Origin: Methanoregula sp.
Lineage (GTDB): Archaea > Halobacteriota > Methanomicrobia > Methanomicrobiales > Methanospirillaceae
Assembly: GCA_028679075.1 (NCBI GenBank)
Contig: JAJRCF010000011.1
Coordinates: forward strand, 9,217-73,216
DNA: 64,000 nucleotides
Direction: 5' to 3'
The position numbers were made by a program, and so were the translations under genes. The number at the start of each line of letters is the position of its first letter. Within the stretch, counting starts at the first letter, position 1. Below, one piece after another: positions 2,654-30,629 of the stretch. The notes beneath the pieces are model-generated. The model saw nothing but the letters and a program-made list of their open reading frames with translations, did no database searches and was not told the DNA's origin.

Positions 2654-4054
2654 ATGACGATCGCTGTCTGTTACCCGGATAAATATTCCGTTGAGGAGGC
2701 CTTCCAGCTCCTCAAAATACCTTGGGTATGGTATGAGGAGGGCTGCCACTATGACGTGGTTATTGCCCGGAAGGCGGATGTACCCGGATATGACGGACCA
2801 TTGATCGATCTTACGGATAATGATTTTTTTGAACGTATCAGTACCCTGCTTAATACTGGCCAACCGCATCTCCATGAGCCAGTATGTGATCTCCTGCTCG
2901 ACGCGGTCCGGCAGGAACTCAAAAAATATACGATCCTTGTGGAGATCCCTCCCGCGCCCTGGGGACATTCCTATATGGTGGCCCTTACTCACGATGTGGA
3001 TGTAACCTCGGTCAGGGAATGCCGTCTTGTCACCGTGGGATATGCAGTATTCCAGTGCATCATGCACGGCTCGGTTTTTGCGGGACTTCGGCTTGGCCTT
3101 TCACGCATTGGGATCGGAAACGATTCCTGGGACCTCTTTGAACGCTGGAAAACATTTGAGGATCAACTGGGTGTTCGATCGACGTTCTTTTTTGTTCCCA
3201 AAAAAGATGATCCCGGTGTCCGGGCACACCCGTACCGGGCTGTTTGTTATGATCTTAACATCGATGTACTTCATGATCTGACGACGGGGGGATGGGAAAC
3301 CGGCGTTCATGGTATCGATAACTGGACTGATTCTCAACGAGGAAAACTGGAGATGGCCTCCATCAGTCCCTGTGGTGAGGCATCCGGTAACCGAACACAC
3401 TGGCTTCTCTTTGACCAGAACAGCTGGAAGGTACTGGACGATGCGGGCTACTCTTACGATACCACATTCGGTTATAATGATGATGCCGGTTTTCGTGCGG
3501 GGATTCTTCAGGTATACCGGCCACGTACTGCGCAGAGATTACTGGAACTCCCGCTTCATATCCAGGATCTCGGTCTCTTTGGAAAATTCTGCTGGGCCCC
3601 CTCGGAAAATGGGTGGGAGAAGACGCCCTGCCTGCATCTTGATGTCATAGCGGCACGAACGTACTGTGATCGCATCTTGGATTTTGCAGAGAAATACGGT
3701 GGAGTAGTTACGTTACTCTGGCATTACGAGAACCTGACCCCGCCCCGCGACTGGTCTGGGACGTATGCTGAGCTGGTGAAGCGTGCTCAGGCCGATGGTG
3801 CATGGGTGACAACGGCGGGATCGGTAGTGGAGTGGTTTGAAATACGGAGAAAAACGGGTATTGGTTATGAAATAAATAAAGGACTCATTACAATCAGGAT
3901 CAATAATCCGCATTCCGGCCATAATCACCCAATGCGCGTGCGGATTCATATCGATCCAGCCTTGGTATCCTCGGTAGATACTGAGCACAGGCCCGGGAAC
4001 GGATACATCGATATTGTCTGTACCCGGCCGGAAATAACGGTGGCACTTACATGA
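2654..4054 (+). CDS. Polysaccharide deacetylase family protein (NodB-like)
   Basis: VALTHDVD, STFFF, WETGVHG and LELPLHIQD motifs; LLWH near the C-terminus. Confidence 0.8.
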   Translation: MTIAVCYPDKYSVEEAFQLLKIPWVWYEEGCHYDVVIARKADVPGYDGPLIDLTDNDFFERISTLLNTGQPHLHEPVCDLLLDAVRQELKKYTILVEIPPAPWGHSYMVALTHDVDVTSVRECRLVTVGYAVFQCIMHGSVFAGLRLGLSRIGIGNDSWDLFERWKTFEDQLGVRSTFFFVPKKDDPGVRAHPYRAVCYDLNIDVLHDLTTGGWETGVHGIDNWTDSQRGKLEMASISPCGEASGNRTHWLLFDQNSWKVLDDAGYSYDTTFGYNDDAGFRAGILQVYRPRTAQRLLELPLHIQDLGLFGKFCWAPSENGWEKTPCLHLDVIAARTYCDRILDFAEKYGGVVTLLWHYENLTPPRDWSGTYAELVKRAQADGAWVTTAGSVVEWFEIRRKTGIGYEINKGLITIRINNPHSGHNHPMRVRIHIDPALVSSVDTEHRPGNGYIDIVCTRPEITVALT

Positions 4055-5202
4055 ATGTCCTCCTGACTGACGGGAATTTCAAACATACTCTGGCAGCGGT
4101 ACGCTCTCTTGGAAAACGAGGCATTGAGGTAACCGTTCTTTCGCATCTTTCTGTCAGTATCTCTTTTTTTTCAAAATATTGCCGCCACCCTGTGATTGCG
4201 CCGGATCCTGAAAAGGACCCCCGGTTTGCAGCATTTCTGCTCGATTATGTTAAAAAAAATCACGTGGATGTTGTGTTGCCAGTCAGTTTTGCGGCGGTGA
4301 TGCAGGTTTCCCGGATTCGCCACGAACTGGAAAAATATACAAAAATTCCCTTGGCGGATGAAGCAGCGCTGGATATTGCCGGGAGTAAGGACCGCACTAT
4401 TCAATATGCAGAAACGATAGGGATCTGCGTCCCGAAAACCTGGTACCCCCGCACGGAAGCCGAAGTCGGGGTAATTGCGCACGAGGTTTCGTATCCTGCT
4501 GTGATCAAGGGATCGGAAGAATCGGGATTTGTCAGGTACGCAAACGCCCCGGACGAATTATCGGAAAAATACCGGTTAATCGCCAGACACTCTCCGGTAA
4601 TACAGGAGTATATTACGGGAGAAGGGTACGGTTTTTTCGCTCTTTATAACCATGGTACTGCCCGGGCGATCTTCATGCACAAACGGATCCGCGAATATCC
4701 GGTTACGGGCGGACCAAGTGCCGTTGCAGTAAGTGTCAATGATCCGGCATTACGCGAGGTGGGATTACGTATCCTTGATAGTCTGCACTGGCATGGTGTT
4801 GCAATGGTGGAGTTTAAAAAAGATGAGAACACCGGCGCATTTGTTCTCATGGAGATCAATCCAAAATTTTGGGGTTCTCTTGGACTCTCCATTGCAGCCG
4901 GTGTGGATTTCCCGTACCTTGCCAGCAGGATGGCAATGGATGGTGATATCGAGCCGGTATTCCACTATGAGTCCGGTGTAAAATACCGCTGGCTTTTCCC
5001 GGCAGATCTCTTTAATGTGATGACAAATCCCCGTTCGATCCAGACGTTTATCAGCGATTTCGGGGATAAATCCATACAGTACGATATAGATTTGCACGAT
5101 CCCGTTCCTGCGTTTATGCAGATGGGCATGACCTTTGCGGAGCTTATACTCCGGGTAAAACAGAACCGGTTCTGGAGGCCTCATGGACGACCTCATTGCT
5201 GA
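4051..5202 (+). CDS. ATP-grasp carboxylate-amine ligase (glycan-cluster type)
   Basis: YPAVIK, IQEYITG, VAMVEFK and LMEINPKFWGS ATP-grasp motifs; ATGA overlap with the upstream gene. Confidence 0.85.
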   Translation: MNVLLTDGNFKHTLAAVRSLGKRGIEVTVLSHLSVSISFFSKYCRHPVIAPDPEKDPRFAAFLLDYVKKNHVDVVLPVSFAAVMQVSRIRHELEKYTKIPLADEAALDIAGSKDRTIQYAETIGICVPKTWYPRTEAEVGVIAHEVSYPAVIKGSEESGFVRYANAPDELSEKYRLIARHSPVIQEYITGEGYGFFALYNHGTARAIFMHKRIREYPVTGGPSAVAVSVNDPALREVGLRILDSLHWHGVAMVEFKKDENTGAFVLMEINPKFWGSLGLSIAAGVDFPYLASRMAMDGDIEPVFHYESGVKYRWLFPADLFNVMTNPRSIQTFISDFGDKSIQYDIDLHDPVPAFMQMGMTFAELILRVKQNRFWRPHGRPHC

Positions 5203-5857
5203 TTTCCATATTCATTCAAAATACTCCCACGATTCGATAATGTCACCGGAGAGTATTGTAAAACAGGCCAAAAAGGCCGGGCTGACCTGCATTGCGATAA
5301 CGGATCACGGGACGATTCGCGGGGGTCTGGAGGGAAAAACAGTTGCCCGTACTTATGGCATTAGCGTTATTGTCGGTACAGAGATTTCGACAGATTGCGG
5401 GGATATTATCGGACTTAATCTCCATGAGGAGATTGGAGTTACCCGATGGCAGGATGTCATCAAGGAAATACGGTCGCAAGGGGGTAAAGTTGTGTTGCCG
5501 CACCCATATCGCGATCATTGCTCTATCGAAGAGATTGCAGAATGTGTTGATTTTATCGAAATATGGAACGGCCGGTCGACCCTTCAACAAAATACGGCTG
5601 CACAGGATCTGGCAAACCGCTTCTTAAAACCGGTAATGTATGGAAGTGATGCCCATGTCATTTCAGAAATTGGATCCGTTAAAACCCGTATCGATCCAGA
5701 ATCCTTCCAGTTCAGGGAGATAATCACAGAACGTTTCTCCACGGCTTCTGAAATTTATTGCAGCCAGATCATCAGCCTTATGAAACAACGAAAATGGGGA
5801 ACATTGGTCTCTCAGGGAACCAGATATATTTGTAGAAAAGTATGGCCATTTCCATAA
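5183..5857 (+). CDS. PHP-domain metal-dependent phosphoesterase
   Basis: DFHIHSKYSHD, IAITDH, PHPYR and GSDAH PHP motifs. Confidence 0.88.
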   Translation: MDDLIADFHIHSKYSHDSIMSPESIVKQAKKAGLTCIAITDHGTIRGGLEGKTVARTYGISVIVGTEISTDCGDIIGLNLHEEIGVTRWQDVIKEIRSQGGKVVLPHPYRDHCSIEEIAECVDFIEIWNGRSTLQQNTAAQDLANRFLKPVMYGSDAHVISEIGSVKTRIDPESFQFREIITERFSTASEIYCSQIISLMKQRKWGTLVSQGTRYICRKVWPFP

Positions 5858-17767: not shown

Positions 17768-17918
17768 ATCAGGATTTTCTCACTAACGAACATTATCTTA
17801 TCGTTAAAAAGAGGAAAATATCAAGTCTCAAGACTTGCCCTGTTCTACAACCACTAATTTAATCTGTGTATACGCCGTGATATTATTTCCAAAGATATTT
17901 TATAGGTGCTATTACCGT

Positions 17919-19178
17919 ATGATTGATACCATAATTAAAAAAAATTCTGAACACTATTTTTGGATTATTGGCGGGGGTCTCCTACAATATCCTTTGATCC
18001 AAGAAGTTGATGATCTTGGATGTAAAGTGATTGTTTCAGATCGTAACCCGGAATGCATTTGTGCAAAAAAAGCAACCATCTTTCTTCCAATAGATATATT
18101 CGATGTTCAGAAACATCTCGAAGAAGGTTTTAAGCTAAAGGCATCTGGCATCAAAATTGACGGTGTGCTTGCGGCGGGCATTGATGCGACCGTGACCATG
18201 GCGGTGCTGGCACGGTCGCTCAATCTGCCCGGTGTTGATCCGGAGATCGCGTATATCACCAATAATAAGAACCTCTTCCGGGAAACGCTCCAGAAGTTGG
18301 GTTATCCCGTACCGAAATTCAGAGTGATTTCAGAATCAGATATAGGAAACATTGAATCCATCGCCAGCGAGATCGGGTATCCATTGATTATAAAAAATAC
18401 GGACAGCAGCGGCAGCCGGGGCACAAAGATATTTCTTAAGGAAGATCCTGAAGACATGCGGCTGATTGCAAAAACGGCAATTGTAGCATCCCGATCAAAA
18501 AGGGCCCTTGTTGAGGAATGCTGGATGGGTGAAGAATTTACGGTAGAAACCATTTTTGATAATAACGGCGGGTTCCATCCATGCTTCATTACGGATCGTT
18601 TTTTCGATAAGTCCCGGGGATATGCAATAGAACTGGGTCTTGGACACCCGACGAGATTACCTCCGGAAATACAACAGGAAATGTATGATCTTGTCAGGAA
18701 TGTTTCCCGGGACCTTGGGATAAAAATCGGTGCCGCGAAAGCTGACATGATTCTGACGCCAAAGGGACCACGTATTATCGAGATGACGGTACGCCTGTCA
18801 GGTGGTTTTGACTGCCAGTATCTCGTCCCGGCGACAACGGGAAAGAATGTCATGAGGGCGGCAATATTAACCGCTCTTGGAAAACCATTTCCTGAAAGTC
18901 TGCTTGTTGATAAAAAGCATCGCGTTGGCAGGACTGCCTCCATCTGGCCGGAACCCGGTAAAATTGTGAGAATCTCGGGTGTTGAAGAGGCATTGAAAAT
19001 TCCCGGTGTTGAGCACATTTTCTTCCGGTATAATGTCGGGGATACCATCGAACCTTACATGGATTGCACACGAAGAGTATGTTTTATTATTGTAACAGGC
19101 AGGGATGCACCAGATGCTGAAAAAACAATGAAGATTGCAATTGGGAAAATCCAGATCGATATCAAAAGGGAGCGATAA
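17919..19178 (+). CDS. ATP-grasp enzyme, L-amino-acid-ligase-like
   Basis: YPLIIKNTDSSGSRG, LVEECWMGEEFTVE and IIEMTVRLSGG, plus a LAL_C2-like C-terminus. ATG 17919 preferred over the longer ORF start. Confidence 0.8.
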   Translation: MIDTIIKKNSEHYFWIIGGGLLQYPLIQEVDDLGCKVIVSDRNPECICAKKATIFLPIDIFDVQKHLEEGFKLKASGIKIDGVLAAGIDATVTMAVLARSLNLPGVDPEIAYITNNKNLFRETLQKLGYPVPKFRVISESDIGNIESIASEIGYPLIIKNTDSSGSRGTKIFLKEDPEDMRLIAKTAIVASRSKRALVEECWMGEEFTVETIFDNNGGFHPCFITDRFFDKSRGYAIELGLGHPTRLPPEIQQEMYDLVRNVSRDLGIKIGAAKADMILTPKGPRIIEMTVRLSGGFDCQYLVPATTGKNVMRAAILTALGKPFPESLLVDKKHRVGRTASIWPEPGKIVRISGVEEALKIPGVEHIFFRYNVGDTIEPYMDCTRRVCFIIVTGRDAPDAEKTMKIAIGKIQIDIKRER

Positions 19179-19179
19179 T

Positions 19180-20283
19180 TTGAGAAGGGTCCTGTTAGTA
19201 TATGGAGCGGGTGCAATAGGCCGTGGTTATTTACCTTGGGTTTTCTCACCGCAGGAGTTCGATTATTATTATGTTGAGACAAATCCGGCAATCGCGAACC
19301 TCATAAACACCCAAAAACAGTTTACCACCTGCAGAATCCGGAATGGTGCTTATGAATGCATGACCGTGCCTGTCGTGCAGTGCTTCAGGCCCGGCGAAGA
19401 GACTGCAGTCATCGATAAAGCAGATGCAATTGTCACTGCGGTCGGACCAAGAAACATCTACCCGCTCAGCGAGAGCATAAAGGGGACGACAAAACCCGTG
19501 ATCTGTTGCGAGAATGATGCATCGATCCCCTCCCTTATTACTACCCTGACGGGAAATCCCAACGTAGTTTTTGCTATCCCCGATGTCATCACGTCAAATA
19601 CCGCCCCCCCGGAATTGCTGAATAAGGATCCTTTGAGCATTGTCACAGAAGACGGCACTTGTTACATTGATGAGCGCGTCTCATACCTTGGCGGGAACTG
19701 CATTTACATAAACCAGGATGAGCTTTCGAAGCAATGGATGGCGAAATTGTATCTCCATAATACCCCCCATTGCATTGCGGCATATCTCGGGTATATCCTT
19801 CAGGTCAACTATCTACACGAATCGATGAAAAATCCTCATGTCGACAGAATTGTGACCGGTGCAATGAATGAGATGCAACAACTTCTTGCAAAAAAATTTT
19901 TCATTGATCAGCAGTTTATCGGTTGGTACGCAGACAAAGAACTTCAGCGTTTCAGGAACTCGCTGCTATTTGATCCCATCAGCAGGGTTGCACGTGAACC
20001 CTTCCGTAAGCTCGCTCCGAATGAGCGATTGATAGGAGCTGCCCAGTTATGTGTCAGCTGCGGGATCATACCTCAGAATATCCTTCTGGGGATAATGGCA
20101 GCATTCTGTTATGATAACCCGGCTGATCCTGATGTTAATATCAAGTACCTCATGGATTCGCTCGCTCCAAAAGATTTCCTGAGGATTGCCATGCAGCTCA
20201 GGCCTGGAGAAGCACTTTACGAACTCCTGCTCAAGCGGTGGGACAATGATATTGGAACACTGAGGAACCTGAATGATATCTGA
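19180..20283 (+). CDS. Mannitol-1-phosphate 5-dehydrogenase-like (polyol-specific long-chain dehydrogenase)
   Basis: YGAGAIGRG, VTAVG, ICCEN, KLYLHNTPH, RFRN and RVAREPFRKL-x4-RL all match MtlD motifs. TTG start one base after the upstream stop. Confidence 0.8.
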   Translation: MRRVLLVYGAGAIGRGYLPWVFSPQEFDYYYVETNPAIANLINTQKQFTTCRIRNGAYECMTVPVVQCFRPGEETAVIDKADAIVTAVGPRNIYPLSESIKGTTKPVICCENDASIPSLITTLTGNPNVVFAIPDVITSNTAPPELLNKDPLSIVTEDGTCYIDERVSYLGGNCIYINQDELSKQWMAKLYLHNTPHCIAAYLGYILQVNYLHESMKNPHVDRIVTGAMNEMQQLLAKKFFIDQQFIGWYADKELQRFRNSLLFDPISRVAREPFRKLAPNERLIGAAQLCVSCGIIPQNILLGIMAAFCYDNPADPDVNIKYLMDSLAPKDFLRIAMQLRPGEALYELLLKRWDNDIGTLRNLNDI

Positions 20284-21067
20284 ACGTGAAAAAACTCTTG
20301 AACTGGCGATGAAAGCTGCCGTATCCGCCGGCAGCCTCCTGTTGGAATATTCAGGCGACCGTGTCAAGACCTCCCCGAAAGAATCTCTGCGGGATATCGT
20401 AACCGAAGTTGACATGTATGCGGAAAAAAAGGTCATCAGCATACTCCGGAAGGCGGATCCCGGATGCCAGATCCTCACTGAAGAGACCGGCCGGCTTACC
20501 GGGACCCGCGGGGATAAATTATGGATTGTGGATGCCCTTGACGGCACAGTCAACTACGTCAACCACATCCCTCTTTATAATGTATCGATTTCATGTGTCG
20601 AAAAAGGCAATCCGGTTGTGGGAGTTATCTATAACCCGGTACTTGGTGACCTTTACTATGGTGCGGAAGGCTATGGTGTGTACCGGAATCACGTTCGGAT
20701 CAAAGTGAAGGATGGTGTTCCAGGGGAGTGCTTGTTTGCTGCCGCATTCTCTGGGAAAAAATATGATCCGGCAAGCAGGAGTGAAGAGTTCCTTGCATTT
20801 GAAAAAGTAAACGATACGTCAAGAGGCTGCCTTCGCACAGGTTCTGCATCCCTCAACCTTTCCTATGTTGCTGAAGGGCGGTTGGGTGGTTGCTGGGGTA
20901 AAGCAAACAAGATCTGGGATATCGCGGCAGGAATAATCATTGCGAATCTTGCTGGTGCCCATGTTGAATATCATTATCTTAATCCTGAAAAAAGCCTCGT
21001 CAGCTACGCCGTTGCAGTACCTTCTGCGTGGGACTATTTATCCGGAATAGTCCTGCCCCGGAAATAA
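20273..21067 (+). CDS. Inositol monophosphatase family (FIG) phosphatase
   Basis: DIVTEVD, LTEE, WIVDALDGTVNY and WDIAAG motifs. Confidence 0.9.
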   Translation: MISEREKTLELAMKAAVSAGSLLLEYSGDRVKTSPKESLRDIVTEVDMYAEKKVISILRKADPGCQILTEETGRLTGTRGDKLWIVDALDGTVNYVNHIPLYNVSISCVEKGNPVVGVIYNPVLGDLYYGAEGYGVYRNHVRIKVKDGVPGECLFAAAFSGKKYDPASRSEEFLAFEKVNDTSRGCLRTGSASLNLSYVAEGRLGGCWGKANKIWDIAAGIIIANLAGAHVEYHYLNPEKSLVSYAVAVPSAWDYLSGIVLPRK

Positions 21068-21195: not shown

Positions 21196-22257
21196 TTAAC
21201 CTGATTTTTCAATGGAAGTATCCGAATTGAAAGACTCTAAAATTTTTTCTGCGGTACGCTTCACCCCGTTTCCATCAACTTTTTGTATGGAAATTGTCGA
21301 CATCTCCTTGCATCTGGTTGGATTTGACACCAGATCGTTTATCGAATCCGCAATTTTTTCAGGAGAAATCCGTGCAAAATTTCCCAATGAGATCATCATT
21401 CCCTCTTGTACAAAAGACGATGCTGATTCGGCATGATCATCCGAAAGGCATAAAAACACCGCGACAACGCCCTGTGATGCCAGCTCATATGCAGTAACAC
21501 CGAACGATGCCACTGCAATATCCGCATTTCTCATGATATCAGCCATGTTTACGACATTATTCAGGACCTGGTAGTGATGTCGTGCATTCTTTAATAAATC
21601 CAGAAGGGCATCGTGATGGAAAAATGCAGGCCCGGTTATCACCTTGACATCAAATTCAGCGTCCAGCATCTCCAGTGCCTGAATTGCCGTGAGGGTCATT
21701 CGCTGAGGATCACTCCCCCCCATTGTAACAAGGATCACTGGCCTGAGATGGCGGGGCTTATCCTTCTTGACAGAAAATTCCGGCCTGATTAGGACCCATT
21801 CCCACCCGGAGAACAGTTTTCCTTTGAACCCGGCCCACTCCATCCGTTTAATCTGGGGGATCGGGGGATAAAAGGCAAGATCTGCAAGCAATCTCCGGTC
21901 GCTGATATCATCAATGGAAATGGTTTTTATACCTCTTTTTTTTATTTCCCTTACCAGTGCCAGGGGGAAATCGTCACGGATGTCCAGGATGAACCCCCAT
22001 GGCTGGTATTCGTCAATAATGCCCATAATCCATGAAAAATAATCAAAACGCATATCATTCTTTTCGGGTGTAAAAACACGGTAATTATGTTTTCTAATGA
22101 GATCAATTCCCTCCATCCCTTCCCGGACCGCAAACGCAATTTCACAGGAATGAACTGATCGCAATTCATCAGCAAGAGCAAGACATCGGACCGTATGTCC
22201 CATCCCCACCCCGGGCGAACCGTCACAGCGAATGAGGATGCGGCAGAGAGTCGTCAT
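21196..22257 (-). CDS. pseG: UDP-2,4-diacetamido-2,4,6-trideoxy-beta-L-altropyranose hydrolase (PseG/SpsG-like)
   Basis: RCDGSPGVGMGHTVRCLALA, TMGGSDP and MRNADIAV; pse gene context. Confidence 0.8.
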   Translation of the reverse strand: MTTLCRILIRCDGSPGVGMGHTVRCLALADELRSVHSCEIAFAVREGMEGIDLIRKHNYRVFTPEKNDMRFDYFSWIMGIIDEYQPWGFILDIRDDFPLALVREIKKRGIKTISIDDISDRRLLADLAFYPPIPQIKRMEWAGFKGKLFSGWEWVLIRPEFSVKKDKPRHLRPVILVTMGGSDPQRMTLTAIQALEMLDAEFDVKVITGPAFFHHDALLDLLKNARHHYQVLNNVVNMADIMRNADIAVASFGVTAYELASQGVVAVFLCLSDDHAESASSFVQEGMMISLGNFARISPEKIADSINDLVSNPTRCKEMSTISIQKVDGNGVKRTAEKILESFNSDTSIEKSG

Positions 22258-23207
22258 TTCACCGGCCAGTTGCTGGGATTCAGTAAGAATGCATCCTGCA
22301 GAGCAAGATCCCTAGCTTCTCTCACCATTGATTCAGAAAATGGGCCGGATTCACTGACGCCTAATGCCTCAAGGAGTTCCTCACTCGTACGAATCCCAAC
22401 CAGCACACTTGATACTTCCGGTGAAGCTATGCAGAAACGAACTGCCACTCCAGGTAATTTTTCCCAGGTACCTGCCAATGTGTCCCTGCACATGAGTGCC
22501 GCTGCTTTCAGTGCAGACAACTCCGGGGGCAACCATTCGGATTTACAGGTTAAGACTCCTTTCAGAAGAGCAGATCGGACAATTATTCCGATACCGGCCT
22601 TCTTTGCGGCCGGGAAGACGTGCGCGGCCATCCGCTGGTCAAGGAGATTGTATGCCACCTGGAGCACGTCGAAACATCCCGCCTCAATTACGGCCAGCGC
22701 TTCCGCTTCAGTATATACCGAAGCCCCAATAAAATGAATGATTCCTTCATCTTTTGCCCTGAGAAGAAATTTGGCCATAGCCCCGTCATTAATTACCGGC
22801 AGAGTCGCATTATGTATCTGAACGATATCCAGATAATCCCGCTTGAGATTTTTCATACTGGATGCAAGTGAGGCATCAATGGCTGCAGATAACTCATTTC
22901 CCTTCCGGGCTTCACCCCCGGCACCCGGTGGAATGGAAACTTTTGTTGCAATGTAGCAATCGGAACGTTCTCCAATTGCCTCTCCAAGACATAACTCACT
23001 GGTTCCATAATTGGGGGCTGTATCAAAGAAATTGATCCCTGCATCAGCTGCCTTGCGAAGCAGCTGAATCACTTCCAGTTCTTCAGGACGACCGAAATTT
23101 CCCGGAACTTCTATTCCATAGTCCACGCCGAGGGATACCGTGCCGAACGAGATCGTTGATACGGATAGTCCGGTCCGTCCGAGTTTTTTATAGAACATCG
23201 GGAACAT
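22254..23207 (-). CDS. Aldo/keto reductase
   Basis: LGRTGLSVSTISFG, GINFFDTAPNYG, IATK and LKRDYLDIVQIH. Confidence 0.9.
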   Translation of the reverse strand: MFPMFYKKLGRTGLSVSTISFGTVSLGVDYGIEVPGNFGRPEELEVIQLLRKAADAGINFFDTAPNYGTSELCLGEAIGERSDCYIATKVSIPPGAGGEARKGNELSAAIDASLASSMKNLKRDYLDIVQIHNATLPVINDGAMAKFLLRAKDEGIIHFIGASVYTEAEALAVIEAGCFDVLQVAYNLLDQRMAAHVFPAAKKAGIGIIVRSALLKGVLTCKSEWLPPELSALKAAALMCRDTLAGTWEKLPGVAVRFCIASPEVSSVLVGIRTSEELLEALGVSESGPFSESMVREARDLALQDAFLLNPSNWPVK

Positions 23208-23215
23208 CCATCCAT

Positions 23216-24529
23216 TCAGGTTAACCGGTAAAATCCGCTTCTCTGTGGCGATCCTTTCAGAAGACTCCGGACCGATCCTTTTTTATGGGCATCTGCAATC
23301 CGGGAGAAGGCATCCTTCGTGACCGATATATAGGCATCAATATGTTTTTTCGTATGAGCGAATGATGGTTTAAACTGGGTGTAGGCAAGATATCTCTTTT
23401 CGAGCATAATCTGCGTAAACAGCGTGGCCATCTCTAATTTTTCATCGCCTTCAATGGAGAAATGGTTCAACGTGGACAGGCCGCTGATATGGACGGGTAA
23501 ACCCGCCTCGTCAGCTGCGTTCTGCCACCCAACCATAACTGAATTGCCGATGGATATAATGTGATCATCGACATGCTTCTCCTGGTATTTCCTGATCGTT
23601 GCGAGTGCAGCGGCAGGTCCGATGCGTTCCGTCCAGTTAGTGCTGCTGATAAATGTTGACTGGGCTGATTCCATGACTTCCGCGGTTCCTACTACCGCTG
23701 CCATTGCATACCCGTTGGACATCGCCTTTGCGAACACAGCAATATCCGGGTTGACTCCCAATGTCTGGTGAATTCCCCCGGGACACATCCGGAACCCGGT
23801 AGTTATCTCGTCGAATACCAGCACAGCATCCTGTTCCCTGGCGATTTTCTTGACCTTTTCGAGGAATCCCGGTTCCGGCGTCTGGTCCCTGCGGGGTTCC
23901 ATGACAATGGCTGCAATGCGGCCGTTATTTCTCGCCACAATCTCTTCCAGTTGTTCGATGTGGTTGTAGTGGAAGGGCAGGGCACTCCCCAGAAGCCCCC
24001 GCGGCACACCGGAGGGTTCGAGACCTGGCATGAGGTGTCCGTCCAAGGCATGATCCTCACTGATATTTGCAGCCAGGTACCAGTCGTACCACCCGTGATA
24101 GCCACAGAATGCAATGATATCCTTGCCGGTATGTGCCCGGGCGATCCTGACCGCTACTGCCATTGCCTCCCCCCCGGATCGGGCATACCGGACCATATTT
24201 GCCCATGGATGCAGCGAGCAGAGAAGTTCAGCCAGTTCCACTTCTTCTGGTGCATTCAGGGTACACTGTACACCATTTCTGAGTGCCGCAATCACAGCCC
24301 TGTCAACATCTGGGTCAGCATAGCCGAGGATGCAGGCGCCAACCCCCATGATACTCATGTCCGTGTAGGTAATCCCTGCAAGATCTGTAACCTTCACACC
24401 TTTCGCTTTTGCATAATAGGCCGGCCAGAGGTCCGGTAAAAACATTTCAGGACGTTTGGAAAGTAGTTGCGTGCCACCGGGAATCAGTTTCTTGCCTTTC
24501 TTGTATAATTCCTGACCATCCATTCTCAT
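23216..24529 (-). CDS. Class III PLP aminotransferase (GSA-aminomutase-like, not HemL)
   Basis: FCGYHGW, IAAIVMEP, VFDEITTGFR and PDIAVFAKAMSNG (PLP lysine). Confidence 0.88.
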   Translation of the reverse strand: MRMDGQELYKKGKKLIPGGTQLLSKRPEMFLPDLWPAYYAKAKGVKVTDLAGITYTDMSIMGVGACILGYADPDVDRAVIAALRNGVQCTLNAPEEVELAELLCSLHPWANMVRYARSGGEAMAVAVRIARAHTGKDIIAFCGYHGWYDWYLAANISEDHALDGHLMPGLEPSGVPRGLLGSALPFHYNHIEQLEEIVARNNGRIAAIVMEPRRDQTPEPGFLEKVKKIAREQDAVLVFDEITTGFRMCPGGIHQTLGVNPDIAVFAKAMSNGYAMAAVVGTAEVMESAQSTFISSTNWTERIGPAAALATIRKYQEKHVDDHIISIGNSVMVGWQNAADEAGLPVHISGLSTLNHFSIEGDEKLEMATLFTQIMLEKRYLAYTQFKPSFAHTKKHIDAYISVTKDAFSRIADAHKKGSVRSLLKGSPQRSGFYRLT

Positions 24530-25290
24530 TCACCTTTCAGTAATTCCTGATCTTTCTTTAATGATTTCAGATATCCTTCATTTCGAAGAATGTCGGCATT
24601 GATGTTCACGAGATCCGGTTCTTTTTCCAGGAGCCGGAGAATATCTTCAGCAAGGAAAATTTCTTTCTCCTTATAGAGCCGTGTGTATATTTTCCTGATA
24701 AACTGAATGTCTTCCGGCTCATCAACAGTCCACCTCATATGGCCGAGGTTGCTGAATTTTTTAAACTGACCCAGTTTGAATTTTTCCGGGTGATTGATAA
24801 TATACGGTCCCACGTGTTCCCGTTCAGAAGGAAGTTTTGCATTATTCCATGCATCCCTGAGCGCTGAATAGGAAAACACGGTGACATCCAGCCCATCAGG
24901 GAATTCCCCGGATAACCAATATGCGTCAAAGTGGCCTTTAAAAAACCCAGTAATCGTCTCATCAACAATTACAGGATCAATCACGGGACAATCCGCAGTG
25001 ATTCTTACGACCGGATCGGCATTAAATTTCGTTGCAGCCTGGTAGTAACGGTCGAGAACATCGTCCTCGCTTCCTGCAAACGATCGTACGCCAGCGGATT
25101 CTGCCAGATCGACGATTGCCCTGTCCTCGGGACGGTTGGATGTTGCAACTACAATCTGCTGGACTGTTTTACACTTTTTGATCCGGTTTATGACATGCCA
25201 TACCAAAGGTTTTCCGGAGAGCTCCATCAGGACTTTTCCCGGTAACCTGCTGGATCCCATCCGTGCCTGGATGATTACGGTTGTTGTCAT
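24526..25290 (-). CDS. SpsF-type cytidylyltransferase (probable CMP-nonulosonate synthetase)
   Basis: IIQARMGSSRLPGKVL, GSEDDVLDRY, VRITADCP, EREHV and RWTVDEPED. Confidence 0.85.
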   Translation of the reverse strand: MTTTVIIQARMGSSRLPGKVLMELSGKPLVWHVINRIKKCKTVQQIVVATSNRPEDRAIVDLAESAGVRSFAGSEDDVLDRYYQAATKFNADPVVRITADCPVIDPVIVDETITGFFKGHFDAYWLSGEFPDGLDVTVFSYSALRDAWNNAKLPSEREHVGPYIINHPEKFKLGQFKKFSNLGHMRWTVDEPEDIQFIRKIYTRLYKEKEIFLAEDILRLLEKEPDLVNINADILRNEGYLKSLKKDQELLKGE

Positions 25291-26150
25291 GAGGCATCTC
25301 TGAATGATTCACGAATTTTCATAACCGGTCGTAAGCCGTCGGAGGGATCCGCTCTCCAGTCGCGCTCCACCATCTCGTTGGCATCGGGTTTCTTCTCCCC
25401 GGTTCCATCCGAAGAGATCCCGGTATGTATTGTAGTGATTACATTCTTCATCTCTTCAGGAAGCCAGCAATGCCCCGTTGAATATTCCTCTCCTTTCCCA
25501 TCGAGATCAAGGTGGAACTCAATCATCGTTGCCCCCCAGTGATGAACTGCGCGGTAAATGACAGGAGGAGATACGGTGTGGTCTGACCATCCGACAGAAC
25601 CTCCAAATACTTTTCTGAGGGTTTCCATTGCTGCCAGGTTGCATTGCCCGGGAGGTGTTGGATATACCGAAGCACAGTGGAGCAAGGTGAGATCCTTGCA
25701 ACCGGCCTTTTTGAGAACAGTTACTGCATCTCTGACTTCATCGAGAGTTGCCATTCCCGTTGAGAGGACTACCGGTTTTCCTGTTTTCGCACAGGAAACA
25801 AGAAGATCTTTCCAGAGCAGTTCGTAGGATGCGATTTTATAGAATTCCACGAAGGGCTCCAGTTCATGGACCGCTTCAAGATAAAACGGAGTGCAGGAAA
25901 AAAGGATGTCATGTTTCCTGCACTTGTCGGCAAGATAGGGCAGGAAAGAAACCGGCAGTTCCCATTGTTTTCTTTTCCTGATATCCTCACGCTTTCGGAT
26001 GATTTCGGGTGCAAACAATTCATCAATCTTAAATAACTGGAATTTTACTGACTCGCAGCCGATATCTGCTGCCGTTTCAATAAACCGGAAACATCTCTCC
26101 AGATTCTGGTTGTGATTACTGGATACTTCTGCAATAAAATGTGGTTTCAT
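25287..26150 (-). CDS. pseI: Nonulosonic acid synthase (PseI/NeuB family), short form without the C-terminal SAF domain
   Basis: IAEVSSNHNQ, VKFQLF, YKIASYE, VLSTGMA, LLHCASVYP, GWSDHT and IEFH; only 287 aa. Confidence 0.85.
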   Translation of the reverse strand: MKPHFIAEVSSNHNQNLERCFRFIETAADIGCESVKFQLFKIDELFAPEIIRKREDIRKRKQWELPVSFLPYLADKCRKHDILFSCTPFYLEAVHELEPFVEFYKIASYELLWKDLLVSCAKTGKPVVLSTGMATLDEVRDAVTVLKKAGCKDLTLLHCASVYPTPPGQCNLAAMETLRKVFGGSVGWSDHTVSPPVIYRAVHHWGATMIEFHLDLDGKGEEYSTGHCWLPEEMKNVITTIHTGISSDGTGEKKPDANEMVERDWRADPSDGLRPVMKIRESFRDAS

Positions 26151-27319
26151 GATCCGTCCACCCCGAGAATTTTACATATTGCTGATATCACACGGTTAAC
26201 ATCCTCATCATCCATCCTCGGAAAAATCGGGAGTGAGAGTTCATGGTGATAATAATTCTCCGCATGAGGGAACTGGCCTTCCCTGAAGCCAAAATGATTC
26301 TGGTAGTACGGCTGCTGATGGATGGGGATATAATGTACCTGAGTGAGGATGCCCTGTTCTTTGAGTTTTGACATCATGCCCTTCCGGTCGCATCCGGTAC
26401 ATTGTATCGGGTAGATATGGAATGCATGCCGGGAATCCGGCCACCGAGGCCTGGGAGGGATAATGATGCCGGGCAGATCCTGGAATACCTGATCATACGC
26501 GTCAGCGATCTCATTCCGGCGTGTTATAAACCCCTCCAGTTTACTGAATTGGGAAATACCGAGAGCGCACTGGATATCCGTTATCCGGTAGTTATATCCA
26601 AGTTCCTGCATCTCGTAATACCACGACCCTTCATTACGGGTGAGTTTCTTCGGATCCTTTGTGGTCCCATGACTCCGTAAAAGTCGGAGCCGTTCGGTAT
26701 ACTCATCGCTGTCCGTGACAATAATACCGCCCTCTCCTGTTGTAATATGTTTGACAGGATGGAAGGAAAACATGGTCATATCTGCTTCCTTCCCAACGGA
26801 CATTCCGTACCGTCGTCCTCCTAAAGCATGAGCGGCATCTTCGACTATCACCAGGTCATGCCTGTCGGCAATATCCCGGATCTCACGCATATCCATAGGA
26901 TATCCTGCCATGTCAACCGGCGCAATCACCTTTGTGCGATCCGTGATGGCATGCTCGATGAGTTGTGTATTGATGCAGTATGTAGCCGGGTCAATATCAA
27001 CGAATACCGGAATACCTCCAAGGTACACTGCGGAATTTGGCGTTGCCACGAATGAAATGGGGGTGGTGATCACTTCATCGCCCGAAGATACACCTGCAGC
27101 AAACATCGCCCCGTGGAGAGCCGATGTACCTGAATTAAATGCCACAGCATATCGTGTGCCGGCATATTTGGCGATCTTATCTTCGAACTGTTCAATCAAC
27201 GGTCCCTGTGTGAGCCAGTCGCCTTTCAACACTGCGCACACTGCGTTGATATCGTTGTCATCCACCCATTGTGATCCATAGGGAATGGTTTTCATCGGCA
27301 TCTGTCCGGACTTTTGCAT
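26147..27319 (-). CDS. pseC: UDP-4-amino-4,6-dideoxy-N-acetyl-beta-L-altrosamine transaminase (DegT family)
   Basis: IPYGSQW, WLTQGP, EDAAHALG, FSFHPVKHITTGEGG, LGYNYRITDIQCALG and QVHYIP. Confidence 0.9.
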   Translation of the reverse strand: MQKSGQMPMKTIPYGSQWVDDNDINAVCAVLKGDWLTQGPLIEQFEDKIAKYAGTRYAVAFNSGTSALHGAMFAAGVSSGDEVITTPISFVATPNSAVYLGGIPVFVDIDPATYCINTQLIEHAITDRTKVIAPVDMAGYPMDMREIRDIADRHDLVIVEDAAHALGGRRYGMSVGKEADMTMFSFHPVKHITTGEGGIIVTDSDEYTERLRLLRSHGTTKDPKKLTRNEGSWYYEMQELGYNYRITDIQCALGISQFSKLEGFITRRNEIADAYDQVFQDLPGIIIPPRPRWPDSRHAFHIYPIQCTGCDRKGMMSKLKEQGILTQVHYIPIHQQPYYQNHFGFREGQFPHAENYYHHELSLPIFPRMDDEDVNRVISAICKILGVDGS

Positions 27320-27320
27320 C

Positions 27321-28301
27321 TCAATAGGAGGACAAGTTAATCATGCGATTGAAATCCTTTTTGTCAAGCCACTGGGTATTGTTATCGCTGCTGTACCTGA
27401 AACCTTCCGGCAGGCTCCGACCTCCGGTTCTGCCATTTTTCCAGAATTTCAGTTCAGGTTCGATCACAAAGAAGGTATCATACTCTTTCGTGTGGCGGGC
27501 CTCGTCTTCTGTAAGAAGGATCTCATGGAGCTTCTCTCCGGGCCGGATACCGATAGTCTCGATCTTTGCGTCAGGTGCCATTGCATGGGCCAGATCAATC
27601 ACTTTCATGCTGGGGATTTTCGGGACAAAGACTTCCCCGCCGGTCATGATGGGAAGACATTTTCTGACAAACTGGACGCCTTCTTCCAGTGTCAGCCAGA
27701 ACCGGGTCATGCGTTCGTCGGTAATGGTAAGTCGCCCGGATTTTTTTTGTTCGAGAAACAGCGGGACAACGCTTCCCCGGCTTCCTACAACGTTTCCGTA
27801 CCGTACACAGGAAAACTTGGTGGGGTGGATATCTCCTGAATAGGAATTTCCCTGCATAAACAATTTTTCTGCAACCATTTTTGTGGATCCATAGAGATTC
27901 ACCGGGTGAACTGCCTTGTCTGTGCTGAGCGCGAGGACCCGATCGACATTGTTGTCAATAGCGGTGTCGATGATATTGATAGAACCATTAATATTGGTCT
28001 TCACCGCTTCAATAGGATTGTATTCACAGGCAGGTACCTGCTTGAGAGCAGCTGCATGAACAACAATATCTACACCATTCATCGCTCGGGAAAGCCGTTC
28101 TTTATCCCTTACATCTCCGATAAAAAACCTGATCCGATCATCCGGAAACAGTTTTTCCGTTTCATACTGGAGCATTTCACCCCGGGAATAGATACGAATG
28201 CTTTTGGGATTGTCTTCTCGTAAAAGAGTTTTCAGGAACGCTCTTCCGAATGATCCTGTACCCCCGGTGATGAGTATTGTCTTATCGTTGAAATATGACA
28301 T
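27321..28301 (-). CDS. pseB: UDP-N-acetylglucosamine 4,6-dehydratase (inverting)
   Basis: ITGGTGSFG, HAAALKQVPACEYNP, LSTDKA, NLYGSTK, RYGNVVGSRGSV, MTRFW and GIRPGEKLHE. Confidence 0.93.
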   Translation of the reverse strand: MSYFNDKTILITGGTGSFGRAFLKTLLREDNPKSIRIYSRGEMLQYETEKLFPDDRIRFFIGDVRDKERLSRAMNGVDIVVHAAALKQVPACEYNPIEAVKTNINGSINIIDTAIDNNVDRVLALSTDKAVHPVNLYGSTKMVAEKLFMQGNSYSGDIHPTKFSCVRYGNVVGSRGSVVPLFLEQKKSGRLTITDERMTRFWLTLEEGVQFVRKCLPIMTGGEVFVPKIPSMKVIDLAHAMAPDAKIETIGIRPGEKLHEILLTEDEARHTKEYDTFFVIEPELKFWKNGRTGGRSLPEGFRYSSDNNTQWLDKKDFNRMINLSSY

Positions 28302-28682: not shown

Positions 28683-30629
28683 ATGCAGATCAGAGACCGG
28701 TGCGTAATGGTAAAAACACTATTTTTTTTAGAAGACCCCAAAAAAATTGATTGGGTCATTCAGGATAGTGTGAAAAGCACAGGGCAATCAGTCTTTATTT
28801 CACTCTCTGCGACTGCATCATATGCGTATGAAAGGTACCAGATCCCTTATAAATCGATCCGGGACTTCGGTGGCGGGGAGGAACGATACCAGCAGGGTTT
28901 GGAAAATTTTCAAAGATTTGATCGGATAGTGACAATTCTTGATAAGGAACTAACTCTTCATCATAACAATCTTACACTGACACCGGCTCGTTATTCAATA
29001 TATAATCTCAAAATTCTTTTTGATACACTTTGGAATGCAATTCAAATTTTAAAACAGATTATTGATATAGAACAGCCGGATTTTATTCGTCTTTATGCAA
29101 TACCCCGGGTAAGATCCGTGAATAAGGTCTGTGTATTCTCAAACAACGAATCGATATATACCGAAGTTTTGAACATGTCTGGATGGAATGTTCAGATCGA
29201 AATAATTCAGGAAACAGAACCTGACCGTATTGATCAAGGGATTACAGGAAGAAGTTACACACGTTTTTCCCGTTTAATGGACTGGATCAAAGAACAGGAT
29301 CTTTTGTTTAATCTGGGGCTGATCAGTAAACGAGAAGGTATCGGATTGGCAACGCTGGCGTTATATTATCATATTATCGTCATGCGCCGGAACCCCGTCC
29401 TTATTTATAATAGCGGATACAATTGGGATGATTCCCTGATTGAACTCTTCCGCGAAGGGATGGTTCCGGTATACCGGATAAGGGATGAGTTCTTAACCAA
29501 TGATATTACAGATGACACGGCATCCTGCGAGGAGGTTCGTAATATATGCGGCGTTCATCCCGGAATGAGGGAATTTGATACTATCCTCGGCATCGATGTA
29601 TCCACATTCTTTTTTGAAAGGCTTTCGGAAATTGTCGGACGTGCTCTTCAGGAATCAGTAGTTGCATATACCTATGCCCGCAAAAAAATCCGACGGAAAA
29701 ACATTCAATGCCTCCTCCTCGCAGCGTGTGATACAACTATGGGTCATGCTATTGTCCAGGCAGCACATGATACAGAAATTCCCGTTGTCTCATGGCAGCA
29801 CGGAGGTGCAGGATATAGTTATCATCCGCTGATGTCATTTATTGAATTTGTCAATTCTGACTGGCATTTTGTTTTTGGGGAAGGCGTTGCCACGAGTTAC
29901 CTGTCCACCTCAAAGTGTATCGGTCTTAAGAAAATCCCCCGTTTTGTCCCCGTGGGATCGAGTTCTCTTGACATCTTTGATAGAAATAAACGAAAAACCG
30001 CGATTAAACCGGATAACGGACCGGTTGTTTATATTACTACTGCGTACCTGCGGAATATCTACATGAATTCCGGGAAAGATGACCTTGGCGTGTTTGACGA
30101 ACATCTTTGGGATATACAACAGCATATCCTCAATCTTGCGAAGAATAACCCTGATAAAGAGTTTATCATAAAATTGCATCCCACTCATATCGATAAAGAA
30201 CCCCTCAATGGGTTTGTGATTGATCATAACATACGCAATGTGAAACTTATCACCTCAGAAATGACCATACGGGAATTAACGGATATTGCCGGAATAATGA
30301 TATTTGACCTTATTTCAACGGGAATCCTACAGGTACTTACCTCAGAACTCCCAGTTTTCGTTTATCCGGGCCTGTATAAAGTCGATCCTGATCCTCTGAT
30401 GCAATTGATGAAACGTGCTTACGTGAGTTATGACAAGAATCGGTTTGTCGCCATGATCCAACAATTCATTGACGTTCATTCGGTAGATTCCTTCGATAGC
30501 GTAGATGTAAAAAATACCGATTTTCTGATAAGATACGGAACTGATCCTGTCCATCATAATAGTGCTGTTGAAGCAGTAACGGCCTTGAAAAAAATCCTGC
30601 TTCAGGAATACCCGTTTCCTCGTGAATAG
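28683..30629 (+). CDS. Large GT-B-like protein, candidate nonulosonate transferase (LIC12162-like); alternative start 28707
   Basis: WQHGG, VPVGSS, IIKLHP and DLISTG motifs resemble the HP and S/T motifs of CMP-sugar transferases. Divergent from pseB. Confidence 0.5.
   Translation: MQIRDRCVMVKTLFFLEDPKKIDWVIQDSVKSTGQSVFISLSATASYAYERYQIPYKSIRDFGGGEERYQQGLENFQRFDRIVTILDKELTLHHNNLTLTPARYSIYNLKILFDTLWNAIQILKQIIDIEQPDFIRLYAIPRVRSVNKVCVFSNNESIYTEVLNMSGWNVQIEIIQETEPDRIDQGITGRSYTRFSRLMDWIKEQDLLFNLGLISKREGIGLATLALYYHIIVMRRNPVLIYNSGYNWDDSLIELFREGMVPVYRIRDEFLTNDITDDTASCEEVRNICGVHPGMREFDTILGIDVSTFFFERLSEIVGRALQESVVAYTYARKKIRRKNIQCLLLAACDTTMGHAIVQAAHDTEIPVVSWQHGGAGYSYHPLMSFIEFVNSDWHFVFGEGVATSYLSTSKCIGLKKIPRFVPVGSSSLDIFDRNKRKTAIKPDNGPVVYITTAYLRNIYMNSGKDDLGVFDEHLWDIQQHILNLAKNNPDKEFIIKLHPTHIDKEPLNGFVIDHNIRNVKLITSEMTIRELTDIAGIMIFDLISTGILQVLTSELPVFVYPGLYKVDPDPLMQLMKRAYVSYDKNRFVAMIQQFIDVHSVDSFDSVDVKNTDFLIRYGTDPVHHNSAVEAVTALKKILLQEYPFPRE

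Follow-up and report, generated by a model that had tools for sequence, protein, structure and literature searches.

The 64,000-nucleotide stretch of DNA analysed here (hereafter, the window), taken from the Methanoregula sp. assembly GCA_028679075.1 (contig JAJRCF010000011.1, positions 9,217–73,216), contains an operon of seven co-directional open reading frames (ORFs) on the minus strand at positions 21196–28301, with the gene content of a pseudaminic acid (Pse)-type nonulosonate pathway. All seven ORFs are present at the coordinates given in an earlier note on this DNA, and both their coordinates and the family profile scores agree with the gene order proposed there, i.e. pseB-pseC-pseI-spsF-(class III aminotransferase)-(aldo-keto reductase)-pseG in a tightly overlapping arrangement. 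The junctions comprise four 4-nt overlaps of the ATGA type, one 1-nt gap, and one 8-nt gap. Families were assigned using the Pfam and NCBIfam profiles with the equivalog cut-offs of NCBI, and the searches were extended to the whole genome assembly (2.5 Mb in 40 contigs, 90% complete), in which the window lies on an 81-kb contig, C11. The genes of the operon are as follows.

27321–28301, minus strand: pseB, operon gene 1, inverting UDP-GlcNAc 4,6-dehydratase (TIGR03589, 503.8 bits, cut-off 407.75; PF02719, E = 3e-99).
26147–27319, minus strand: pseC, DegT-type aminotransferase yielding UDP-4-amino-4,6-dideoxy-beta-L-AltNAc (TIGR03588, 501.5 bits, cut-off 423.5).
25287–26150, minus strand: NeuB-family nonulosonate synthase of 287 amino acids (aa), SAF-less (PF03102 only).
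24526–25290, minus strand: SpsF-type cytidylyltransferase (CTP_transf_3), presumed CMP-nonulosonate synthetase (PF02348, E = 4e-32).
23216–24529, minus strand: class III HemL-like pyridoxal phosphate (PLP)-dependent aminotransferase, referred to here as AT3 (PF00202; 4-nt overlap with spsF).
22254–23207, minus strand: aldo-keto reductase (AKR), proposed sugar dehydrogenase (PF00248; 8 nt downstream of AT3).
21196–22257, minus strand: PseG-like GT-B protein of 353 aa, presumed UDP-sugar hydrolase and last gene of the operon (TIGR03590, 143.6 bits, cut-off 153.55).

The synthase, described in the earlier note as a PseI that lacks its SAF domain, indeed matched PF03102 only. It scored 176.4 bits on the PseI model TIGR03586 (cut-off, 340.25) and 182 bits on the NeuB equivalog model (cut-off, 400), is the sole NeuB homologue in the genome, and shares 52–63% identity with synthases of 276–306 aa encoded in the loci designated type A below. 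The SpsF-type protein, which scored 30.6 bits on the PseF model TIGR03584 against a cut-off of 205.7, is the only CTP_transf_3 protein above the cut-off in the genome. Closest or near-closest among the solved relatives of these two proteins are PDB 6ncs, a 290-aa SAF-less 'sialic acid synthetase' (E = 5e-28), and PDB 6oew, a 250-aa 'cytidylyltransferase' (E = 6e-36), respectively, and both could be used as templates. The PseG-like protein retains the histidine of the N-terminal G-x-G-H motif when compared with Campylobacter jejuni PseG (3hbm), although the alignment is weak (E = 0.002). A GNAT domain hidden in this 353-aa protein was considered and rejected, as no GNAT match was obtained even at E = 1. 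The operon contains no adh_short gene. A second DegT gene of the genome, on contig C2, adjoins a gene for a UDP-sugar dehydrogenase.

The top NCBIfam matches of AT3 were HemL-like, every one of them under its cut-off. AT3 was rejected as the housekeeping HemL, since it scored 195.5 bits on the hemL model (cut-off, 527.3) and the true HemL is encoded on contig C1 (97912–99129; 526.8 bits). When aligned to glutamate-1-semialdehyde (GSA) aminomutase, AT3 keeps the PLP lysine (in 'FAKAMSNGY') and the aspartate (in 'VFDEITTGFR'). The AKR keeps the D-Y-K-H catalytic tetrad, is 43–59% identical to AKRs encoded downstream of AT3 in type A loci, and has as its best characterised PDB relatives the L-galactose dehydrogenases, which are AKRs working oxidatively. 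The conserved active-site residues support the prediction that both enzymes are catalytically intact.

No match to PF00583, PF13302, PF00132, PF00551, or TIGR03585 was found on the 81-kb contig; thus, the absence of GNAT and left-handed beta-helix (LbH) acetyltransferases reported in the earlier note for the window holds for the entire contig. The genome-wide search for pseH, which that note had named as a check, gave nothing at the cut-off: the best match to the PseH model (TIGR03585) in the 90%-complete assembly scored 24.9 bits against a cut-off of 93.1. Candidates for a PseH elsewhere in the genome were rejected on this score and on their contexts, as RimL-type GNATs on contigs C20 and C6 stand among genes unrelated to the pathway and a 199-aa LbH acetyltransferase on contig C24 belongs to an AglB/GlmS/GlmU/GlmM cluster. 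This cluster (C24, 8981–18789), which encodes the AglB oligosaccharyltransferase, a GT4 glycosyltransferase, the LbH acetyltransferase, GlmS, two GlmU-like proteins, and GlmM, is the UDP-GlcNAc supply and N-glycosylation locus of the genome. Taken together, the profile scores and the genome-wide acyltransferase searches uphold the view that the operon encodes a Pse-type pathway that lacks PseH and whose synthase is SAF-less.

Thousands of AT3 relatives turn up in protein searches. A gene order with SpsF directly upstream of AT3 is shared by approximately 30 loci spread over more than 10 phyla, the carriers including Aeromonas, Legionella, SAR11, cyanobacteria, Methanothrix, and Asgard archaea. 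SpsF and AT3 are even fused into one ORF of 675–704 aa in L038, L039, L041, L046, P0070, and P0077 (our locus designations), found in Lentisphaerae, an Enterobacteriaceae metagenome-assembled genome (MAG), Oscillatoria, SAR11, and two metagenomic proteins. A fusion of CTP_transf_3 to an AKR is also present in a Vibrio Pse cluster (PMC7371886). In cassette loci, the AKR occurs in two forms and at variable positions; in the window, this NAD(P) oxidoreductase belongs to the gene run itself, embedded among pseB, pseC, and neuB. The Methanothrix locus L020 and the Dehalococcoidia locus L037 have no AKR, and a GFO/IDH/MocA oxidoreductase adjoins SpsF and AT3 instead. Members of the GFO/IDH/MocA family commonly oxidise sugar hydroxyls before transamination, and the substitution of such a dehydrogenase where the AKR is missing points to an oxidise-then-aminate step on a sugar. 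The co-occurrence of SpsF, AT3, and AKR, another check named in the earlier note, was therefore confirmed for SpsF and AT3, but the AKR is missing or replaced in some loci. These comparative data indicate that the SpsF/AT3/oxidoreductase cassette is a functional unit that is widespread in bacteria and archaea. Literature searches brought up no biochemical work on the cassette or on triamino nonulosonates.

The same cassette occurs together with PseH-like functions. PseG-GNAT fusions of 500–555 aa are encoded in L020, L038, and L041, and a 487-aa GNAT-PseI fusion is present in a Spirochaetia genome (L025, 10227–11690). The PseG-GNAT fusions of Methanothrix (L020, 9340–10968) and Lentisphaerae (L038, 9303–10856) are 517–542 aa in length. 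Other acyltransferases in such loci are free GNATs (L032, L039, and L041), a formyltransferase (L021), and PglD-like LbH proteins (L044 and L046). In the last of these loci (L046, 6415–9296 and 11437–17028), from a SAR11 single-cell genome, an AKR gene and the SpsF-AT3 fusion lie within a legionaminic-type cluster that also encodes PtmE-like, NeuC-like, and PglD-like proteins and a carbamoyltransferase. Because the cassette also occurs in PseH-containing and legionaminic-type loci, it is not a replacement for PseH, and the tie between the extra gene pair and the loss of PseH implied in the earlier note does not hold. The legionaminic-type context further suggests that the cassette serves 5,7-diamino nonulosonates generally rather than Pse alone.

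The window is archaeal, as previously labelled. It encodes the methanogen marker Mmp10 and subunit A of topoisomerase VI, the latter being 75% identical to that of Methanolinea mesophila, with the remaining named matches in Methanoregulaceae and Methanomicrobiales; the closest named relative of the window is thus Methanolinea/Methanoregulaceae. The G+C content is 55–60% in the flanks of the window and 41–50% at approximately 4–32 kb, and that of the operon is 48–50%. This low-G+C stretch is a glycan island that holds several further sugar pathways.

In a maximum-likelihood tree of 41 cassette AT3 sequences and the HemL of this genome, AT3 from the window fell inside a clade (type A; support, 99/95) whose named members are otherwise all bacterial. 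The AT3 sequences of Methanothrix and Hodarchaeota are placed outside this clade, and HemL is set off from the cassette sequences by a long branch. The closest matches to AT3 are bacterial and 66–70% identical. Within the order to which the window belongs, an orthologue was found in 7 of 150 other genomes, in all cases with 52–60% identity, and two of the 11 genomes of the same genus are among these seven. Moreover, the same seven genes surround relatives of AT3 in Syntrophorhabdus (beside a flagellar FlaF gene), Acidobacteriota, and Dehalococcoidia. Since the bacterial copies of AT3 resemble that of the window more closely than do the copies found in its own genus, and the operon has a low G+C content, a recent acquisition is indicated, and the operon was probably acquired horizontally from bacteria. 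The tree, the identities, and the shared gene contexts speak against presenting this module as an archaeal novelty, and the oxidoreductase-aminotransferase pair, described in the earlier note as extra, is not peculiar to this archaeon but part of a cassette that is widespread in both bacteria and archaea. A rearranged type A locus of a Deferribacteres MAG (L015, 6131–12601) contains truncated pieces of AKR, SpsF, and PseC (113, 150, and 239 aa) and may be decaying or misassembled.

A second operon, on the plus strand at 17835–21067, is convergent on pseG and consists of three genes.

17835–19178, plus strand: L-amino-acid-ligase-type (LAL) ATP-grasp protein, candidate amide ligase (PF18603 LAL_C2, E = 5.8e-16, plus ATP-grasp families).
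19135–20283, plus strand: mannitol-1-phosphate-dehydrogenase-like (MtlD-like) gene (PF01232/PF08125; below all NCBIfam cut-offs).
20273–21067, plus strand: IMPase-like phosphatase gene (PF00459; below all NCBIfam cut-offs).

The best PDB match of the ATP-grasp protein is the L-amino acid ligase 3vot (61 bits), and full-length matches of 129–261 bits were obtained to ATP-grasp proteins encoded beside type A modules. Fourteen syntenic type A loci were judged for the presence of such a gene (the window, L005, L007, L009, L011–L014, L016, L037, L055–L057, and the P0042 locus); five of them, from Acidobacteriota, are closely related to one another and not independent, and the rearranged locus L015 was set aside. 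An LAL_C2-type ATP-grasp gene is located a few kb from the core in 13 of the 14 loci. The exception, L007, carries instead a gene with a CapK_C domain (PF27533), and CapK-type proteins are adenylate-forming enzymes. No PseH-type GNAT was seen in any of the 14 loci; no GNAT, Hexapep, or formyltransferase was found within 10 kb in the seven of them with precomputed Pfam annotation, and no PseH-like match at E <= 1e-5 was obtained in five Acidobacteriota genomes or in one Dehalococcoidia genome carrying this module. In contrast, none of the nine non-A loci has an LAL-type ATP-grasp gene, and all nine encode a GNAT, LbH, or formyl transferase. On this complementary distribution, the ATP-grasp protein at 17835–19178 is the leading candidate to acylate the amine normally acetylated by PseH, and it is likely, judging from gene co-occurrence, to be the PseH substitute. 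The idea that the missing N-acylation is provided by an ATP-grasp enzyme of the island thereby gains real support. The other ATP-grasp gene of the island (4051–5202) was rejected for this role, as none of the related loci has an equivalent.

Only the ATP-grasp gene of this second operon has counterparts in the other loci compared, in which no homologues of the MtlD-like and IMPase-like genes were found. In bacterial type A loci (L055, L056, L057, L009, L014, and L011), an accessory gene run downstream of the PseG-like gene encodes one or more methyltransferases, an SDR, and the LAL ATP-grasp protein, together with a thiamine pyrophosphate (TPP) enzyme, transketolase, or KduI and a GH57-like protein of 660–685 aa. 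The acid ligated in the methanogen may differ, given that MtlD-like and IMPase-like partners take the place of the bacterial set. The flagellin of Shewanella oneidensis, an organism lacking a clear PseH orthologue, carries a mono-N-acetyl Pse with an oxygen-rich group of 236–264 Da (PMC3765264), and that of Treponema denticola carries a Pse-type sugar with a 2-methoxy-4,5,6-trihydroxyhexanoyl group (PMC13439194). By analogy, the bacterial accessory set would fit such oxygen-rich, O-methylated acyl groups. The two systems resemble the proposed one in having a Pse-type core with a single N-acetyl group and a larger O-methylated acyl group on the other amine; unlike the window, the S. oneidensis sfmABCDE genes as described include neither AT3 nor AKR (PMC3765264).

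Several other known systems share parts of the operon. Relative to the canonical Pse5Ac7Ac pathway of C. jejuni and Helicobacter pylori (PseB-PseC-PseH-PseG-PseI-PseF), the window has PseB and PseC at the equivalog level and PseG-like, NeuB-family, and CTP_transf_3 proteins in the same operon; it differs in the lack of PseH, a SAF-less synthase scoring half the PseI cut-off, an SpsF-type protein in place of PseF, a PseG-like protein just under the cut-off, and the addition of AKR and AT3. The Bacillus subtilis SpsC-D-E-F-G system similarly combines an SpsF-type cytidylyltransferase with an SpsE/NeuB synthase (best PDB match, 1vli) and an SpsG/PseG-like hydrolase acting on UDP-linked precursors, but it includes an acetyltransferase (SpsD) and a SAF-containing SpsE, lacks AT3 and AKR, and yields legionaminic acid, which is made but not transferred in spsF mutants (PMC7439481).

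The cassette itself has been recorded in gene surveys. In the polar-flagellin islands of Aeromonas group I (subgroups IA–IE), a reductase, an SpsF-type 'pseF', and a class III aminotransferase are encoded between pseB/pseC and pseG/pseI; in subgroup IA (39 strains), the order is pseB-pseC-reductase-pseF-class III aminotransferase-pseG-pseI, reported as gene content only with no function assigned (PMC7874193). A PseG/aminomutase/cytidylyltransferase run in the Legionella pneumophila Sg6/Sg12 lipopolysaccharide (LPS) locus likewise has no function assigned (PMC3694923). The Aeromonas order pseC-AKR-pseF-AT3 differs from the SpsF-AT3-AKR order of the window, and the loci examined with the former order have AKRs only 26–30% identical to that of the window, a full-length PseI, and a PseH that is usually present or fused. 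This arrangement represents a non-A branch of the AT3 tree and is not accompanied by an ATP-grasp gene. A. hydrophila AH-1 carries a Pse-like glycan of 403 Da with an unsolved structure (PMC4691044), from whose odd nominal mass we infer an odd number of nitrogens. AH-1 has been cited as an example of the small islands (group I or III), of which group I has the cassette order (PMC7874193).

Precedents for chemistry at C8 are also known. EpaA, encoded by Acinetobacter baumannii prophages, is a CTP_transf_3-AKR fusion that, together with the SDR EpaB, converts Pse5Ac7Ac into its 8-epimer, as determined by NMR (PMC12053666). As in the window, a CTP_transf_3 domain is coupled to an AKR, here acting on C8 of Pse, and the modified sugar has its own activating enzyme; the difference, as far as the descriptions can be compared, is that EpaA is one fused protein with an AciE-like SDR partner and catalyses 8-epimerization, whereas in the window SpsF and AKR are separate proteins and AT3 is encoded between them. 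When a phage collection was searched for EpaA, the AKR query gave generic AKR matches only, and the SpsF query gave none in Acinetobacter phages. The Shewanella KdnB/KdnA pair for Kdo8N offers a second likeness, in that a hydroxyl of a 2-keto-3-deoxy sugar acid is oxidized and then transaminated. The enzyme families differ, as KdnB is an iron-type alcohol dehydrogenase acting on the primary C8 alcohol of an eight-carbon sugar and the oxidoreductase of the window is a PF00248 AKR. Finally, an 8-amino-pentadeoxy-nonulosonate occurs in the O-antigen of Tenacibaculum maritimum (PMC3210612).

On these grounds, the reading that we place first, and to which we give somewhat less than an even chance, is that the operon directs the synthesis of a CMP-activated Pse-type nonulosonate by a non-canonical 'type A' route acquired from bacteria that includes ATP-grasp acylation and amination steps. 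PseB and PseC, by their equivalog-level homology, would produce UDP-4-amino-4,6-dideoxy-L-AltNAc. The free 4-amine (later N7) would not be acetylated; instead, the ATP-grasp protein at 17835–19178 would ligate a carboxylic acid onto it, as the co-occurrence data suggest, and this acid might be supplied by the co-operonic dehydrogenase and phosphatase (19135–21067). The PseG-like protein would then remove UDP, the SAF-less NeuB would join the hexose to phosphoenolpyruvate, and the SpsF-type enzyme would add CMP, each role being assigned by homology and because the genome has no second gene of the kind. The AKR, working as a dehydrogenase, would oxidize a hydroxyl of the nonulosonate, and AT3 would aminate the resulting ketone to yield a triamino sugar, with C8 as the most plausible position by analogy with the Epa system and the Tenacibaculum sugar. 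The SpsF-type protein would represent an activating enzyme matched to the modified sugar, which would probably be transferred to a surface glycan by the product of a 648-aa ORF that has a weak match to a transferase family (see below).

Oxidation followed by amination was already proposed for the AKR and aminotransferase in the earlier note. The intact active sites, the SpsF-AT3 and SpsF-AKR fusions, the displacement of the AKR by GFO/IDH/MocA enzymes, and the EpaA/EpaB precedent at C8 favour such a role on the nonulosonate, and no other reading accounts as well for the comparative data; the position of the amine is suggested by analogy only. The more specific proposal that the product is a 5-acetamido-7-(acylamido)-8-amino-3,5,7,8,9-pentadeoxy nonulosonate, with an amide ligase standing in for PseH and AKR/AT3 installing a third nitrogen, is considered rather unlikely.

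Several points weigh against the type A route. AKRs usually reduce in vivo, and an AKR or a replacement for it is not detectable in every locus (e.g. L044). Either the free sugar or the CMP-sugar could be the substrate of the amination. The partners of the ATP-grasp gene in the methanogen are unlike the SDR, TPP enzyme/KduI, GH57-like, and methyltransferase genes of bacteria, and other conceivable roles for the ATP-grasp protein are acylation of the new amine, amidation of the carboxylate, or a reaction with a different sugar of the island. With an assembly that is 90% complete, acetylation in trans by the LbH acetyltransferase on C24 or by some generic GNAT is also conceivable. No assay of the AKR, SpsF, or AT3 enzymes of the cassette or of this ATP-grasp subfamily was found in the literature.

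Among the alternatives, the one that survives best, although we consider it improbable, is that AT3 and AKR make a small acid or amino acid, for example by transamination and reduction of an oxo-acid or semialdehyde, that is attached by the ATP-grasp protein and that the sugar itself is left untouched by this pair. The nearest characterized relatives of AT3 (GSA aminomutase and the GntE transaminase) use small omega-aldehydes or amines, AKRs typically reduce aldehydes, and AKR, AT3, and ATP-grasp genes co-occur in type A loci. However, the SpsF-AT3 pair, mostly with AKR, is equally conserved in nine ATP-grasp-free loci, including the legionaminic-type locus of SAR11; AT3 is repeatedly fused to the cytidylyltransferase and EpaA, with its CTP_transf_3-AKR architecture, acts on Pse itself (PMC12053666).

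A still poorer chance is given to the synthesis of ordinary Pse5Ac7Ac, in which a generic acetyltransferase encoded elsewhere, or in the missing 10% of the genome, would replace PseH and the extra genes would be dispensable. The incompleteness of the assembly, the several RimL-type GNATs, and the 199-aa LbH acetyltransferase leave room for such an enzyme, and the canonical PseG and PseI act on the acetylated intermediate. Against this stand the lack of any candidate at the PseH cut-off or near the sugar genes of this pathway, the same deficit in the five Acidobacteriota genomes and one Dehalococcoidia genome and in the seven Pfam-annotated type A loci, and the divergence of the synthase and the PseG-like protein, whose sub-cut-off forms fit a different substrate. 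Equally doubtful is a scheme in which AKR and AT3 add no nitrogen but epimerize C8 or C4 via a keto intermediate, as EpaA/EpaB do at C8 (PMC12053666), or exchange a 7-amine for a 7-hydroxyl by transamination and reduction, for which the AKR preference for reduction, the reversibility of transaminases, and the free 7-amine available in PseH-less loci could be cited: for epimerization, a pair of redox enzymes is required and an aminotransferase is not, whereas the minimal cassette of Aeromonas subgroup IA combines a single oxidoreductase with AT3 (PMC7874193), and the exchange would wastefully remove the amine just installed by PseC and would be impossible where PseH acetylates N7, as in most non-A loci.

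Downstream of the type A route, transfer of the activated sugar is the step for which a candidate is encoded next to the operon.

28683–30629, plus strand: ORF of 648 aa, divergent from pseB, candidate nonulosonate transferase (weak match of residues 470–539 to the BFO_1060 family).

This ORF has no Pfam match. Its residues 470–539 gave weak matches to two families, LIC12162 and the BFO_1060 glycosyltransferases (E = 1.7e-7 for the latter model), the second of which contains a Tannerella transferase of Pse/Leg derivatives. BFO_1060 is the orthologue of Tanf_01245, the Tannerella transferase genetically proven for the addition of a Pse derivative to the S-layer O-glycan (PMC5420450). The 648-aa ORF can therefore be regarded as a reasonable candidate for the nonulosonate transferase. 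It was rejected as a homologue of the GH57-like proteins of bacterial type A loci, as a profile built from five of these proteins matched nothing in the window or the genome. Elsewhere in the island, the plus strand at 2654–5857 encodes, in this order, a 466-aa protein weakly matching the VimE deacetylase (UDP-2,3-diacetamido-2,3-dideoxy-glucuronate deacetylase), the second, PRK06849-like ATP-grasp protein, and a PHP-domain protein. This gene set looks like another amide-forming set for sugar tailoring.

As decorations of flagella, capsules, S-layers, and LPS, nonulosonic acids shape recognition by phages and immune systems, and the SpsF/class III aminotransferase/oxidoreductase cassette is among the most widespread unassigned gene sets in nonulosonate loci. 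Its gene content was already known in Aeromonas and Legionella, and the operon in the window is a transferred bacterial variant rather than an archaeal invention. A third amino group installed by the cassette would, if borne out, offer an explanation for glycan masses that are still unsolved, including the 403 Da of A. hydrophila AH-1, and genes could then be assigned for the first time to 8-amino nonulosonates, of which the T. maritimum sugar is one. An ATP-grasp ligase in place of an acetyl-CoA-dependent transferase would, if confirmed, account for the large oxygen-rich N-acyl groups of Shewanella and Treponema. For the methanogen, the operon documents the probable bacterial-to-archaeal transfer of a complete surface-sugar pathway, which, if the proposed route is correct, would place a triamino nonulosonate on its surface glycan.

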